A stretch of DNA of 64,000 nt from Sphingomonadales bacterium 39-57-19 (GTDB lineage Bacteria; Pseudomonadota; Alphaproteobacteria; Sphingomonadales; Sphingomonadaceae): the NCBI GenBank assembly GCA_002282385.1, contig NCJG01000004.1, positions 12,254 through 76,253 of the forward strand, written 5' to 3'. The translations under genes were made by a program, and so were the position numbers. The notes beneath the pieces were generated by a model. The model did no database searches and was not told the origin of the DNA. It was given only the letters and a program-made list of their open reading frames with translations. Positions 41,806 through 46,606 of this stretch are shown piece by piece (the first letter of the stretch is position 1; each line of letters opens with the position of its first letter).

Positions 41806-42609
41806 TTATTCTCCCTTAAACTCGGGTGCGCGTTTTTCGAGAAACGCGGTGATGGCTTCGTCATTATCCGCGGTGGCATGCGCAAGGCTTTGCATCGCGG
41901 CAGACATTTCGAGGATGTTTTTCAGGTCCGCCGTCTGCCCTTCGCGCAACAGCCGCTTGGTCATGCGGACGGCATGTGGCGGGTTGGCGGCGATCTTGTC
42001 CGCCACCTTGCGCGCAGCATTCATCAGATCGGCATCGTCCACGACTTCGGACACAAGGCCGATGCGCAGCGCCTCTGCCGCGTCGATGGTTTCGCCTGTC
42101 AACGCAAGCTCGGTCGCTTTGGAAAAGCCGACGATGCGGGGCAAAAGCCATGCGCCGCCATCACCCGGCGTAATGCCAAGGCGCACAAAGCTTTCCGCGA
42201 ATTTGGCTGACGCAGCCGCAATACGAATGTCGCACATCGTGGTCAGGTCAAGCCCTGCGCCGATGGCGGGGCCGTTGACGGCCGCAACAACGGGCACCTC
42301 AAGCGCCTGAAACATCAGCGGCAACCGCTGAATACCATATTTATAGTTCCGCCGCGTTTCAGCTGGCAATCCGGCGCGCAGGCCGCCGCTGTCGGGGCGC
42401 ATCTGTTTCAGATCGCCGCCCGATGAGAATACCGTTCCGGCCCCCGTTAGGATGACGCAGCGCACCGACATATCTTGGTCCGCCGCCATGAAGGCATCGC
42501 AAATCTGTTCGACGACGCCGACGTCCGATATCGGGTTGCGCTTTTCCGGCATGTTCATCGTGATGGTCAATATGCCGCCATCGCGCGACTGGAGAATTTG
42601 GTCCGTCAT
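41806..42609 (-). CDS. Crotonase/enoyl-CoA hydratase superfamily protein, non-canonical active site
   Basis: Motifs FSSGGD, VNGPAIGAG and ALRIGLV; TAATG overlap with fabD, 1 nt from fabG. Confidence 0.9.
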   Translation of the reverse strand: MTDQILQSRDGGILTITMNMPEKRNPISDVGVVEQICDAFMAADQDMSVRCVILTGAGTVFSSGGDLKQMRPDSGGLRAGLPAETRRNYKYGIQRLPLMFQALEVPVVAAVNGPAIGAGLDLTTMCDIRIAAASAKFAESFVRLGITPGDGGAWLLPRIVGFSKATELALTGETIDAAEALRIGLVSEVVDDADLMNAARKVADKIAANPPHAVRMTKRLLREGQTADLKNILEMSAAMQSLAHATADNDEAITAFLEKRAPEFKGE

Positions 42610-43547
42610 TATATGGCTTTCAACAAAGCTTCGATGTCATCCATGCTGATGACGCTCGAGGTGGTGATGTCTTCATGCGTGCTGCGCTTCACCATAGGAG
42701 ATAGCACTTTGCCGCCGAATTCAACGAAATGGGTAACGCCAGTTTCCGCCATCGCGATTGCGGACTCACGCCAGCGCACGCGGCCGGTTACCTGCTGCAC
42801 CAATTGCGCGGCGATGATGTCGGGTTCGGATACCGGCGCTGCCGTCACGTTCGCAAAAAGCGGGACCAGCGGCGCATGAATGGTCGTCGTGCCAAGCGCG
42901 CTTTGCATTTCATCGGCTGCAGGTTGCATCAATGGACAGTGAAAGGGTGCAGATACCGGCAACAATATACCGCGCTTGATCCCATGGTCCTTGGCCAGCT
43001 CAATGGCGCGATCAATTGCGCCTTTATGCCCTGAAATGACGACCTGCGACGGATCATTGTCATTTGCCACGGTGCAGGTTTCGTCCTGCGCCGCAGCCGC
43101 AGCCAACGCTTCGGCTTTCTCGATATCTGCCCCAAGCAACGCAGCCATCGCGCCAATACCAACGGGAACAGCGGCCTGCATGGCGCGACCACGAAGCTTC
43201 AACAATGCCGCCGTCACAGACAATGGCAGCGCGCCAGCGGCACATAGCGCGCTATATTCGCCCAAAGAATGGCCCGCGACGAAATTGCATTTCTCCGAAA
43301 GGCGGACGCCGCCTTCGGTTTCGAGCACGCGCAAGGTCGCAATGGCATTTGCCATAATCGCAGGCTGGGCATTTTCGGTCAGCGTAAGCTCGCTTTCGGG
43401 GCCATCACACATCAACCGGAACAGATGTTGGCCAAGCGCTTCGTCGACTTCCTGAAACACCGCGCGGGCGGTGGGGCTGGCGTCGGCGAGCGCTTTGCCC
43501 ATGCCAACCGCCTGGCTGCCTTGTCCTGGAAATATAAATGCGCGCAT
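42609..43547 (-). CDS. fabD: Malonyl-CoA:ACP transacylase
   Basis: Motifs FPGQGSQ, GHSLGEY and SAPFHC. Confidence 0.97.
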   Translation of the reverse strand: MRAFIFPGQGSQAVGMGKALADASPTARAVFQEVDEALGQHLFRLMCDGPESELTLTENAQPAIMANAIATLRVLETEGGVRLSEKCNFVAGHSLGEYSALCAAGALPLSVTAALLKLRGRAMQAAVPVGIGAMAALLGADIEKAEALAAAAAQDETCTVANDNDPSQVVISGHKGAIDRAIELAKDHGIKRGILLPVSAPFHCPLMQPAADEMQSALGTTTIHAPLVPLFANVTAAPVSEPDIIAAQLVQQVTGRVRWRESAIAMAETGVTHFVEFGGKVLSPMVKRSTHEDITTSSVISMDDIEALLKAI

Positions 43548-43583: not shown

Positions 43584-44420
43584 CTATGGTGCGGCGCTGG
43601 ATGTTGCAAGCCCGAACGGCACGATGCGGTTATCGGCGTCATGGCCGATGTCCGCGCGGCCCAGATAGGCGATGCCCGTCTTGGCACACCAGCGCCGGGC
43701 GATTTCTTCTGCGCCTTCGCCAAATGGCCGTTCATTTTCGGGCACATCGCTGACACGGCCAAGCCGCAAGCCGGCGAGGCCAGCCGATTGCAAATGGGTG
43801 CCGACATTGAAAAAGGCCCGGTCAAATCCGTACAGATATTCGCTGACTTCCTCGACCATTAACACATGGCCATTCAGATCGGGCATCAACGGCGTTCCAG
43901 CCATCATGGCCAGCGTCATCAGGTTGAACGCAGCATGTTTTTCCCCGGCCTGCACATGCGGCTCAAGCGCGTGCGGCGATTGGTGCACGATCCAGTCAAG
44001 CGCACGGGGCACGGCCGCCTCGCCGCCTGCGCGTCGTATGTCCGCAGGCATGGGGCCATGGCACACGCGGCCAATGCCCGCGCGACATAAAGCGCCGAGC
44101 AAATTGCCGGCGTCGCTATAGCCCATGTACATCTTGTCAGCTGCGATGGGTTTTAGAGCTGCGACAGCGTCTTCGGCGATCCGGCACGCGCCATATCCGC
44201 CACGGACAAACCAGACCGCATCAAAGCCGGGGTCATTGGCAAGCTCTACAAAAGCGTCGCGCCGTTCGTCATCCGAGCCCGCGAAATGCCCCGCCTCGGT
44301 AAAGCATTGGTCATGAAAGTAAAGCTCCGCGCTCGGATGTGACGTGGCGGCAAGCGCCGAAACGCGTGCAGCGTCTTCACGCGTAAAGGGCGTCGACGGT
44401 GCGCATATCCCGATTTTCAT
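43584..44420 (-). CDS. LD-carboxypeptidase (S66, LdcA-like)
   Basis: Motifs VRGGYG, GYSD (Ser), VEEVSE (Glu) and IGH (His); start ATG 44420. Confidence 0.9.
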   Translation of the reverse strand: MKIGICAPSTPFTREDAARVSALAATSHPSAELYFHDQCFTEAGHFAGSDDERRDAFVELANDPGFDAVWFVRGGYGACRIAEDAVAALKPIAADKMYMGYSDAGNLLGALCRAGIGRVCHGPMPADIRRAGGEAAVPRALDWIVHQSPHALEPHVQAGEKHAAFNLMTLAMMAGTPLMPDLNGHVLMVEEVSEYLYGFDRAFFNVGTHLQSAGLAGLRLGRVSDVPENERPFGEGAEEIARRWCAKTGIAYLGRADIGHDADNRIVPFGLATSSAAP

Positions 44421-44440
44421 GAAAAGCCTTCCATCCCCAC

Positions 44441-44558
44441 ACCGTAGCCCTGAGCCGTCAGCGCGCAAGCGCTGGCGAAAAGTCGAAGGGTGCTTCACCG
44501 CCGATAACCGCCCTTTGACCGGCGCAGCCGCGATGCGACTGCTGCTCAGGACTGCGGT
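44441..44558. repeat. Four-way-junction palindromic element (REP-derived or cis-regulatory RNA)
   Basis: P1 44441-44455/44544-44558; P2 44457-44476 with a GCAA loop; P3 44482-44492/44509-44519; P4 44524-44542. Confidence 0.65.
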
Positions 44559-44608
44559 TACCTTCGCTTGCCATTGCCAAATCCCTTCCTACCCAATAAC
44601 CGACGCTT

Positions 44609-46003
44609 ATGCACAAAAACAAATCCTATTTCTTCTGTGGCATTGGCGGTTCGGGCATGTTGCCCTTGGCGAATATCGTTCGCGATGCCGGCGCAACCGT
44701 CGCCGGGTCCGACCGCGCGCTGGATCAGGGCCGCTTAGGCGCCAAGTTTGAATGGTTACAAAGCCTTGGCATCGACCTGTTTGCGCAAGACGGCAGTGGC
44801 CTCATCAGTGGCGACCAAATTCTCATTGCGTCTGCTGCTATCGAAGACAGCGTGCCGGATGTGGCCAAGGCGAATGCCTTGGGCTGCGCCCGCATGACCC
44901 GCGCAGAGCTGCTCGCGGATTTGTTTAATAATGCGCCGCGCAGCGTTGCCGTTGGCGGGACCAGCGGGAAATCGACCGTCACGGGCATGATCGGCTGGAT
45001 ATTGACCGATGCAGGGCTGGACCCGACCATCATGAACGGCGCGGTGATGAAGAATTTCGTCGCCGATGACGCGCCTTTTGCGAGCGCGCGCGTGGGGCAG
45101 GGGAATGTTTTTGTTTCGGAGGTCGACGAAAGCGATGGTTCTATCGCCTTGTTCACCCCCGAAGTCGCGGTGCTCAACAATGTCAGCCTCGACCATAAAA
45201 GCCTTGAAGAATTGCGGCAGCTGTTCGGTGACTTTGCCAAGAAAGCAAAGACAAGCGTATGGAACGCCGATGATGCAGAGACTGTGGCGCTCATGGAGCC
45301 CTTGGCGCTGGCAGGGGCCATCAGCTTCGGCTTTGCAGCGCAGGCTGATTTCCGCGCGACCGATATCGTGGACTTGCCGCTGGGCAGCCGTTTCACGCTC
45401 CACGCCATGGGCGATACCCATGACGTCGCGCTCATCGTCCCCGGTCGTCACAATATCGCCAACGCACTGGCCGCCATCGCCGCCGCGACCGCGCTCGGCG
45501 TGACAGTTGCGCAGGCCGTTCGCGCGATAGAGCGTTTCAATGGCCTAGCCCGCCGCTTCGACATTGTCGGCACCGCCAACGACATTACGGTCATCGACGA
45601 TTTCGGCCACAACCCCGACAAGATCGCCGCAACGCTTGCAACACTCAAAGCCTTCCCGGGCCGGATCATCGCCTTCTTCCAACCGCATGGCTATGGACCA
45701 ATTCGCGTGATGGGCGCTGAATTGGCCGGCGTTTTTGCCGACATGCTTGGCGAGGGCGACCACCTCATCCTGTGCGATCCTGTCTATTTCGGTGGCACTG
45801 TCGACAAGAGCATCGGCAGCCAAAGCATAACCGACGCTGTCATTGCAGCAGGCCAAAATGCCGAATATATCCCGTCGCGCGAAGATTGCGGCAACCGCAT
45901 GGTCGATCTCGCGCAACCCGGCGACCGTATCGTCATCATGGGCGCGCGGGATGACACGTTGAGCGCGTTTGCAGCGGATATTTTGGCGCGGCTTGGCGCC
46001 TAG
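44609..46003 (+). CDS. MurC/Mpl-like Mur ligase with atypical substrate motifs
   Basis: Motifs CGIGGSGM, GTSGKST, EVDESD, LDH, DDFGHNP and FQPHGY. Confidence 0.85.
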   Translation: MHKNKSYFFCGIGGSGMLPLANIVRDAGATVAGSDRALDQGRLGAKFEWLQSLGIDLFAQDGSGLISGDQILIASAAIEDSVPDVAKANALGCARMTRAELLADLFNNAPRSVAVGGTSGKSTVTGMIGWILTDAGLDPTIMNGAVMKNFVADDAPFASARVGQGNVFVSEVDESDGSIALFTPEVAVLNNVSLDHKSLEELRQLFGDFAKKAKTSVWNADDAETVALMEPLALAGAISFGFAAQADFRATDIVDLPLGSRFTLHAMGDTHDVALIVPGRHNIANALAAIAAATALGVTVAQAVRAIERFNGLARRFDIVGTANDITVIDDFGHNPDKIAATLATLKAFPGRIIAFFQPHGYGPIRVMGAELAGVFADMLGEGDHLILCDPVYFGGTVDKSIGSQSITDAVIAAGQNAEYIPSREDCGNRMVDLAQPGDRIVIMGARDDTLSAFAADILARLGA

Positions 46004-46073: not shown

Positions 46074-46165
46074 TTCGCTTGGGGTAACCCTCGTGGAATC
46101 GAAGAAAGCCGGAGGGGCGTATGCATGGTGCTGCGTCAGCGATCGGTAGGAACAAGGAAACGCCC
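46074..46165 (+). promoter_or_regulatory. Candidate rpsF leader (S6:S18 autoregulatory RNA)
   Basis: Promoter TTGCTT-N17-TAAGCG at 46039-46067. An unpaired CCG precedes a GGGCGT/ACGCCC stem that closes just before the ATG and encloses the SD. Not checked against Rfam. Confidence 0.35.
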
Positions 46166-46606
46166 ATGCCAATGTACGAGCATGTATTTTTGGCGCGTCA
46201 GGACCTTTCACAGGCCCAGGTTGATGCGCTGGCAGAAGTTGCCACCAAGATTGTGGAAGACAATAAAGGTAAGGTCGTAAAGACCGAAACCTGGGGTCTT
46301 CGCACACTGACTTACAAAATTCAGAAAAACCGCAAAGCGCATTTCGTAATGCTCGACATCGAAGCTAATGGCGACACCATCGCCGAGCTCGAGCGTCAGA
46401 CACGTATGAACGAAGACATCATTCGTTACATGACTGTTCGCGTTGACGCGCATGAAAAAGGCCCATCGGTCATGATGCGCAAGAGCGACCGTCCAGAGCG
46501 CAGCGAGCGCGGTGGATTCGGTGGCGGCGACCGTGATCGCGGTGCCCCACGTCCAGATCGTGGCGACCGTCCCGATCGCGCACCCCGTGCAGAGCAGGAG
46601 GCTTAA
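46166..46606 (+). CDS. rpsF: 30S ribosomal protein S6
   Basis: Motifs [20 protein letters not shown] and IIRYMTV; RG/DR-rich tail. Confidence 0.97.

Follow-up and report, generated by a model that had tools for sequence, protein, structure and literature searches.

A 64,000-nucleotide stretch of the genome of Sphingomonadales bacterium 39-57-19 (GCA_002282385.1, contig NCJG01000004.1, positions 12,254–76,253, forward strand), here called the window and used as the coordinate frame, encodes a MurC-like Mur ligase and, divergently from it, a leaderless S66 LD-carboxypeptidase, LdcA. The ligase is probably an Mpl-like UDP-N-acetylmuramic acid (UDP-MurNAc):murein-tripeptide ligase that arose independently of Mpl, and the two genes would together form a cytoplasmic module for the salvage of murein peptides. 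The tripeptide is proposed as substrate on the basis of gene linkage, natural fusions, and co-occurrence across genomes. A preliminary description of this DNA had left a choice between a peptidoglycan-recycling ligase and one adding a different amino acid or peptide. Because this ligase lineage is linked to, fused to, and found together with two unrelated kinds of cytoplasmic LD-carboxypeptidase, a recycling ligase is strongly favoured over a single-amino-acid ligase, the activity being predicted from that context.

The Mur-ligase domains PF01225, PF08245, and PF02875 were recognized in the ligase with 38.6, 69.9, and 75.6 bits, respectively, all above their gathering scores. Against the curated family models the protein scored 291.5 bits for MurC (TIGR01082, cut-off 335.1) and 143.5 bits for Mpl (TIGR01081, cut-off 388.7), and thus fell under both. 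The ligase was then aligned with Haemophilus influenzae MurC (1gqq/1p3d) using HMMER, and the changes are numbered as in that protein. DDFGHNP of the ligase aligns with DDYGHHP (Y346–P350) and FQPHGYGPI with FQPHRYSRT (H376–R380), resulting in the changes Y346F, H349N, R377G, and R380P, with H348 and H376 retained. In MurC, the incoming amino acid is contacted by His376, Arg377, Arg380, Tyr346, and His348 (Das et al. 2011, PMC3060825). Both arginines that engage the L-Ala carboxylate in MurC have been lost from the window ligase, in agreement with the two motifs and the loss of both arginines and one histidine given in the preliminary description; the lost histidine is H349, while H348, an amino-acid contact, stays. 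A third loop, GARDDTL, is two residues longer than its MurC counterpart and contains a new and invariant Arg447-Asp448. The N-domain retains UDP-binding motifs of the MurC type (GIGGSGM and GSD). Across 49 members of the subfamily described below, the P-loop, DESD, DH, HNxxN, RR, D331, H334, and H360 vary little or not at all, and the invariance of the catalytic residues led us to reject the possibility of a pseudo-enzyme.

Relatives of the ligase were collected with a HMMER search over 1.84 billion cluster representatives, and the best 150 matches were taken, of which 128 are full-length. These 150 matches score 255–718 bits and outscore both the host's own MurC (183 bits) and the best solved MurC (210 bits). 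Among the 128 full-length representatives, D[FY]xHNP is present in 116, GARD near the C-terminus in 121, and HG[FY]xP in nearly all, while the MurC motifs HHP or QPHRxxR occur in none; the motifs are therefore not due to chance. The subfamily signature can be written as D[FY][AG]HNP, HG[FY]xP, and GARD, and the window ligase has all three. The consensus of the three loops is DDfaHNP, QPHGfgP, and GARD.tL in the subfamily, compared with DDYgHHP, QPHRytR, and GAGd in MurC and DDFAHHP, EPRSNtM, and S--NGgFgG in Mpl. A fourth difference separates YaAGE of MurC from YaGGt of the subfamily. The Mpl motifs cited earlier for comparison, DDFAHHP and EPRS, were recovered in an alignment of Escherichia coli Mpl with nine other Mpl proteins.

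Two maximum likelihood trees were calculated, both as "quick" searches without bootstraps, and their topology is provisional. In the first (LG+G4, 78 rows), the subfamily fell outside a group of MurC plus Mpl with a Shimodaira–Hasegawa-like approximate likelihood ratio test (SH-aLRT) support of 97; a five-row subset was placed separately, and a single subfamily clade was supported at only 56. In the second (C20 mixture model, 54 rows, including eight extra metagenomic MurC sequences), MurC and Mpl again grouped together (SH-aLRT 96) and the subfamily formed one sister clade (87). Mpl appears in the trees as a long branch amid canonical MurC. By its sequence, the window ligase thus represents, within the MurC/Mpl branch, a third lineage whose C-domain substrate loops have been rewritten to a conserved pattern of their own, and the earlier suggestion that it fits neither family is upheld by both the cut-offs and the phylogeny. 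A divergent Mpl orthologue was considered and rejected, as the score lies so far under the Mpl cut-off, the Mpl motifs are absent, and the protein is located outside the Mpl clade. Members of the subfamily are currently annotated either as "UDP-N-acetylmuramate--alanine ligase" or, less specifically, as "Mur ligase family protein" or "hypothetical protein", and an ESM Atlas look-up of the ligase gave "MurC family, Pseudomonadota" only. The hits of a word-indexed homologue search were all near-identical proteins of Sphingorhabdus, with no distant relatives among them.

The genomic context of the ligase was then examined. The gene order at the window locus, fabD-ldcA<->ligase-rpsF, is kept in all 11 Sphingomonadaceae genera sampled. 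A divergent S66 gene was found within 600 nucleotides (nt) in 78 of 80 loci from named alphaproteobacterial species, including Novosphingobium, Erythrobacter, Sphingopyxis, Sphingomonas, Brevundimonas diminuta, Ponticaulis koreensis, Hyphomonadaceae, and a Caulobacter metagenome-assembled genome (MAG); the non-sphingomonad loci (Brevundimonas, Ponticaulis, Caulobacter) lack the fabD and rpsF flanks where checked. In distant alphaproteobacterial families (44–48% identity), the S66 gene is directly downstream of the ligase on the same strand, and one protein of 742 amino acids (P0182) is a natural ligase-S66 fusion. Another ligase clade is associated with a YkuD domain, which is fused at the N-terminus in P0187, P0286, and five metagenome loci (L149, L150, L151, L152, and L161) and is encoded by a separate gene 23–56 nt upstream on the same strand in four loci (L153, L158, L160, and L167). 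As the YkuD-bearing metagenome loci are 45–64% identical to P0187, this architecture recurs across a diverged clade. The YkuD profile was built from the YkuD domain alone, and the best NCBIfam match of the partner was NF040925 (ElsL) at 115–128 bits, which is under the cut-off of 270, versus about 30 bits for models of periplasmic L,D-transpeptidases. ElsL, a YkuD enzyme of the Acinetobacter baumannii cytoplasm that has no leader peptide, acts before Mpl and turns tetrapeptide into tripeptide (PMC8649774). That two unrelated enzymes predicted to yield the same product are tied to one ligase lineage is the strongest single argument for the substrate of the ligase. The HNP of loop 1 is also reminiscent of FolC and cyanophycin synthetase, and the adjacency of ldcA might be functionally unrelated if the ligase acted in another pathway of the FolC, CapB, or cyanophycin type. 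Such an assignment is very improbable given the full-length match to MurC, the MurC-type N-domain, and a linkage that recurs in divergent, tandem, and fused forms across Alphaproteobacteria and distant metagenome members.

The distribution of both genes was determined in three samples: 61 Sphingomonadaceae genera with one genome each, 201 Alphaproteobacteria, and a phylum sample of 151 genomes, 107 of them non-alphaproteobacterial. An orthologue of the ligase (55–69% identity) is present in about 36 of the 61 Sphingomonadaceae genera. Every genome in this sample with the ligase has an LdcA orthologue, and none was found in the ligase-less Sphingomonadaceae, two of which gave weak matches to another S66 paralogue. 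The two genes are adjacent in all ligase-bearing Sphingomonadaceae except one (G004). In a further genome (G026, C1:1020948–1021871), the match to LdcA is in two parts and contains an internal TGA, and the ligase is the most divergent of the sample (55% identity); this copy of the module may be undergoing decay. Among the 201 Alphaproteobacteria, 25 (about 12%) encode the ligase and all 25 have an S66 protein, which was identified by the Pfam N-domain in 24 and, in G110, by a tblastn search with the C-terminal half. For the three checked loci of this class sample without an adjacent S66 gene, exactly one such gene was found elsewhere in each genome. Canonical Mpl exceeded its cut-off in none of the 61 Sphingomonadaceae, none of the 201 Alphaproteobacteria, and 106 of the 107 non-alphaproteobacterial genomes, the last of which contain no ligase. 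The subfamily profile scored 535–601 bits in six genomes of the phylum sample, all alphaproteobacterial, and at most about 350 bits elsewhere, where canonical MurC is matched. No genome in the samples has both Mpl and the ligase, although this mutual exclusion may reflect phylogeny as much as function. Every ligase-bearing genome retains a canonical murC. In the host genome (2.31 Mb, 20 contigs, rated 99.99% complete), a search for such a gene, which had been recommended as a check, identified murC on contig C1 beside murE, murF, and murD; it scores 527 bits, and the TIGR01082 cut-off is 335. The window ligase being the sole murC of the genome was thereby rejected, as the canonical gene is located in a division and cell wall (dcw) cluster on another contig.

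The partner enzyme is better characterized than the ligase. The LdcA of the window matches PDB 3g23 (LD-carboxypeptidase A, the Novosphingobium aromaticivorans enzyme) at about 65% identity over residues 2–272 with a score of 365.7 bits, while the next-best solved LdcA reaches 56 bits. The protein contains both S66 domains (PF02016 and PF17676) and the Ser-Glu-His triad, and no signal peptide was found at its N-terminus (MKIGICAPS). Judging from the alignment, it is a close orthologue of the characterized Novosphingobium enzyme. LD-carboxypeptidase activity of that enzyme, including the direct conversion of pentapeptide to tripeptide, is described in the passage of PMC8689515 that cites Das et al. 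2013. A second S66 paralogue is encoded on contig C14, outside the window (L237:1427–2476; 349 amino acids, 178.8 bits to NF008424). It begins with a twin-arginine-like signal peptide (MDMNATRRQIMAGLAAML...), lies directly 3' of a fragment of a TonB-dependent receptor gene, and probably acts as an LD-carboxypeptidase in the periplasm, which would make the ligase-linked LdcA the cytoplasmic copy. Similar weak matches to S66 paralogues were observed in several Sphingomonadaceae, with or without the ligase.

In the proposed pathway, anhydromuropeptides would be imported by AmpG and the stem peptide released by an AmpD-type amidase. The leaderless S66 LdcA would cut the terminal D-Ala from the tetrapeptide, and the ligase would attach the tripeptide thus formed to UDP-MurNAc, yielding UDP-MurNAc-tripeptide for completion by MurF. 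The host genome encodes AmpG (421 bits, over the cut-off) and an Amidase_2 protein of the AmpD type. Ligation of tetrapeptide is toxic when LdcA or ElsL is missing (PMC13046382; PMC8649774). That the ligase depends so strictly on a carboxypeptidase agrees with this toxicity: a peptide ligase without a trimming enzyme would be harmful, and fusion of the two proteins would secure both their stoichiometry and the order of the reactions.

Several observations weigh against an Mpl-like function for the ligase. The co-occurrences were counted in related genomes and do not represent independent events, and 20 of the 176 alphaproteobacterial genomes that lack the ligase contain S66 proteins. No member of the AnmK family (PF03702) was detected in the nearly complete host genome, so recycling in this organism would be partial; the muropeptide sugars may bypass the usual anhydro-N-acetylmuramic acid kinase route though the peptide route appears present. 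A set of 26 metagenome loci with full flanks lacks an adjacent carboxypeptidase; three of these ligases read as canonical MurC, about 23 have the subfamily motifs, and the genes around them are unrelated, among them dapB and genes for a glycosyltransferase and a DEAD-box helicase. In sequence and fold the ligase is closer to MurC than to Mpl: the AlphaFold2 model (predicted local distance difference test, pLDDT, 95.8) gave a template modelling (TM) score of 0.89 to closed MurC and 0.72 to Mpl (3hn7), crystal forms that differ in domain closure. In addition, Arg377 is absent from some canonical MurC proteins (FQPHTYSRT in 9ir5; FQPHLYSRT in L222), and its change is weak evidence taken alone, Arg380 being the stronger marker. 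The AFFDKRSK insertion, EPRSNT, and SNGGFGG of Mpl are all absent from the subfamily, and any tripeptide pocket in the window ligase would therefore need a different construction. Finally, biochemical or genetic characterization of any subfamily member was not found in the literature on Mpl, MurC paralogues, and LdcA.

Some of these points would suit a second UDP-MurNAc:amino-acid ligase, either a back-up MurC or an enzyme that places Gly, Ser, or some other single residue at position 1 of the stem. The best HMM and structure matches of the ligase are to MurC, its central domain lacks the Mpl insertion, and Arg377 is variable in genuine MurC. We nevertheless regard this as quite unlikely, since neither Arg380 nor Arg377 is retained and every member has an altered loop 3. 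A back-up MurC, moreover, is at odds with the canonical murC kept in every ligase-bearing genome and leaves unexplained the linkage, fusion, and co-occurrence with carboxypeptidases of two folds. Other points would accord with a murein-peptide ligase whose specificity or acceptor is unlike that of Mpl: the substrate loops are not the ones seen in Mpl, no carboxypeptidase is adjacent in about 23 members of the subfamily, and the Novosphingobium LdcA homologue is reported, in the same passage of PMC8689515, to convert pentapeptide directly to tripeptide. Such an enzyme could ligate tetra- or pentapeptide with LdcA trimming the UDP-linked product, could ligate a dipeptide, or could use another nucleotide-sugar for signalling or modification. 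We consider these variants together unlikely, as the UDP-binding motifs of the N-domain are those of MurC, the tripeptide is the simplest use of an LD-carboxypeptidase product, and the gene neighbourhoods hint at no alternative acceptor.

Compared with known systems, the ligase resembles Mpl in belonging to the same MurC/Mpl branch, in its three-domain fold, in its location outside the dcw cluster, in its tie to a cytoplasmic LD-carboxypeptidase, and in a complementary phyletic distribution; the proposed reaction would be identical. It differs in lacking GICGTFM, (S/T)AFFDKRSK, EPRSNT, and SNGGFGG, and in its physical linkage or fusion to the carboxypeptidase, whereas E. coli mpl is located between fbp and yjgA. 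MurC (TIGR01082; PDB 1p3d and E. coli 2f00) is closest by sequence (28–37% identity) as well as structure, and the window ligase retains its GIGGxGM, P-loop, DESD, DH, HNxxN, RR, and QPH core. Apart from the four substitutions in loops 1 and 2, it differs from MurC in the changes GAGD to GARD and AGE to GGT, in its position outside dcw, and in being always accompanied by a true murC. The likeness to Novosphingobium aromaticivorans LdcA concerns the partner gene, not the ligase, and extends to the Ser-Glu-His motifs. ElsL (LdtK, A. baumannii, NF040925) provides the same pathway logic for the ligase clade with an ElsL-like leaderless YkuD partner; the window itself contains no ElsL-like YkuD.

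A description of the ligase lineage was not found in the literature searched, which does not include the 2013 paper on Novosphingobium LdcA (J Bacteriol 195:5555, PMC3889619) that may mention the neighbouring ligase; within that coverage, the term "undescribed" used for the ligase at the outset holds. Caulobacter and Agrobacterium are reported to be without LdcA and Mpl, their stem peptides probably being degraded and not re-ligated (PMC13046382, PMC11980594, PMC9790009). A cyanobacterial "conserved hypothetical protein" has been called an in-silico Mpl (PMC7464499), and guesses of Mpl-like proteins therefore exist at the level of databases. What we propose as new is that the function of Mpl is performed by a lineage independent of it, which has specificity loops of its own and is coupled with unusual tightness, in some cases by fusion, to the enzyme acting upstream. 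On balance we lean towards the wider proposition that murein-tripeptide ligation arose a second time, in a third lineage of MurC-like enzymes that has loops of its own and is carried as a two-gene or fused module with LdcA- or ElsL-type carboxypeptidases, in about one in eight of the sampled alphaproteobacterial genomes and, going by cluster names, in bacteria of the Planctomycetes–Verrucomicrobia–Chlamydiae (PVC) group. A different, LdcA-locked ligase lineage is found in about 12% of the sampled Alphaproteobacteria, including about 60% of Sphingomonadaceae genera, Brevundimonas, and Hyphomonadaceae, and direct peptide recycling would, if the proposal is true, be far commoner than suggested by alphaproteobacterial surveys in which Mpl is missing. 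If the ligase is an Mpl analogue, the pathway of the characterized Novosphingobium LdcA would be closed, the Mur ligases would offer a clear example of substrate specificity changing convergently, and the three sequence signatures would correct current annotations. The fused ligase-carboxypeptidases would then suggest substrate channelling that avoids the toxic ligation of tetrapeptide.

Table 1. Features of the ligase-ldcA locus, in window coordinates
Feature	Position	Strand	Basis or comparison
MurC-like Mur ligase, distinct subfamily, 464 amino acids	44609..46003	+	three Mur-ligase Pfam domains, clade, AlphaFold2 model
GIGGSGM, MurC/Mpl-type nucleotide-binding glycine loop of N-domain	44639..44659	+	conserved in subfamily, as MurC GIGGxGM; Mpl GICGTFM
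P-loop GTSGKST (ATP)	44957..44977	+	G117, G120, K121 invariant in 49 subfamily members
Specificity loop 1, DDFGHNP, residues 330–336	45596..45616	+	MurC DDY[AG]HHP, Mpl DDFAHHP
Specificity loop 2, FQPHGYGPI, residues 357–365	45677..45703	+	in place of MurC FQPHR[YF]xR
Specificity loop 3, GARDDTL	45941..45961	+	MurC GAGD[IV], Mpl SNGGFGG
Leaderless S66 LD-carboxypeptidase LdcA, 278 amino acids	43584..44420	-	PF02016 and PF17676; PDB 3g23 match
LdcA nucleophile motif GYSDAG (Ser102)	44106..44123	-	aligns with GFSD of Pseudomonas aeruginosa LdcA 1zl0
LdcA acid motif MVEEVSE (Glu190)	43839..43859	-	aligns with LVLEDVGE of 1zl0
LdcA His motif IGHDADN (His260)	43629..43649	-	aligns with SGHGAQN of 1zl0
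Divergent intergenic region, 188 bp, both promoters presumed	44421..44608	.	gene arrangement
fabD	42609–43547	-	
rpsF	46121–46606	+	

The coordinates of the locus are collected in Table 1. The divergent arrangement of LD-carboxypeptidase and Mur ligase on opposite strands and the position of the ligase outside any dcw cluster are as first described: the flanking genes are fabD and rpsF, and no dcw genes were found near the ligase locus in the window. The open frame of ldcA extends to a GTG at 44498, but the start was assigned to the ATG at 44420 because the alignment to 3g23 begins at residue 2 from that ATG, which results in a spacer of 188 bp. A sigma-70 consensus scan of this intergenic region returned zero sites, and the promoters are therefore presumed there from the gene arrangement only, which is kept in 78 of 80 loci. 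In a string of genes for fatty-acid synthesis, an enoyl-CoA hydratase/crotonase-family gene (41806–42609) is located between fabD and fabG.

A profile scan of genome contigs identified subfamily loci exclusively in Alphaproteobacteria, with the exception of two contigs from MAGs labelled Flavobacteriales (L087) and Flavobacteriaceae (L144). The ligases on these contigs are 72% and 60% identical to the window protein, respectively, and both are probably mis-binned alphaproteobacterial contigs. Distant members, annotated as "Mur ligase family protein" or "hypothetical protein", are indicated by a few cluster names in Candidatus Brocadiia, Kiritimatiellia, and Verrucomicrobiota, all of the PVC group. 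At one metagenome locus (L157:3345–3998), dapB, encoding the dihydrodipicolinate reductase of diaminopimelate synthesis, is immediately 5' of a subfamily ligase on the same strand. On a 245-kb metagenome contig (L217:5658–7740), a subfamily ligase is followed by two convergent Mur-ligase-like frames that match the ligase profile with E-values of 3e-47 and 9e-52 and may represent a dcw cluster or further paralogues.

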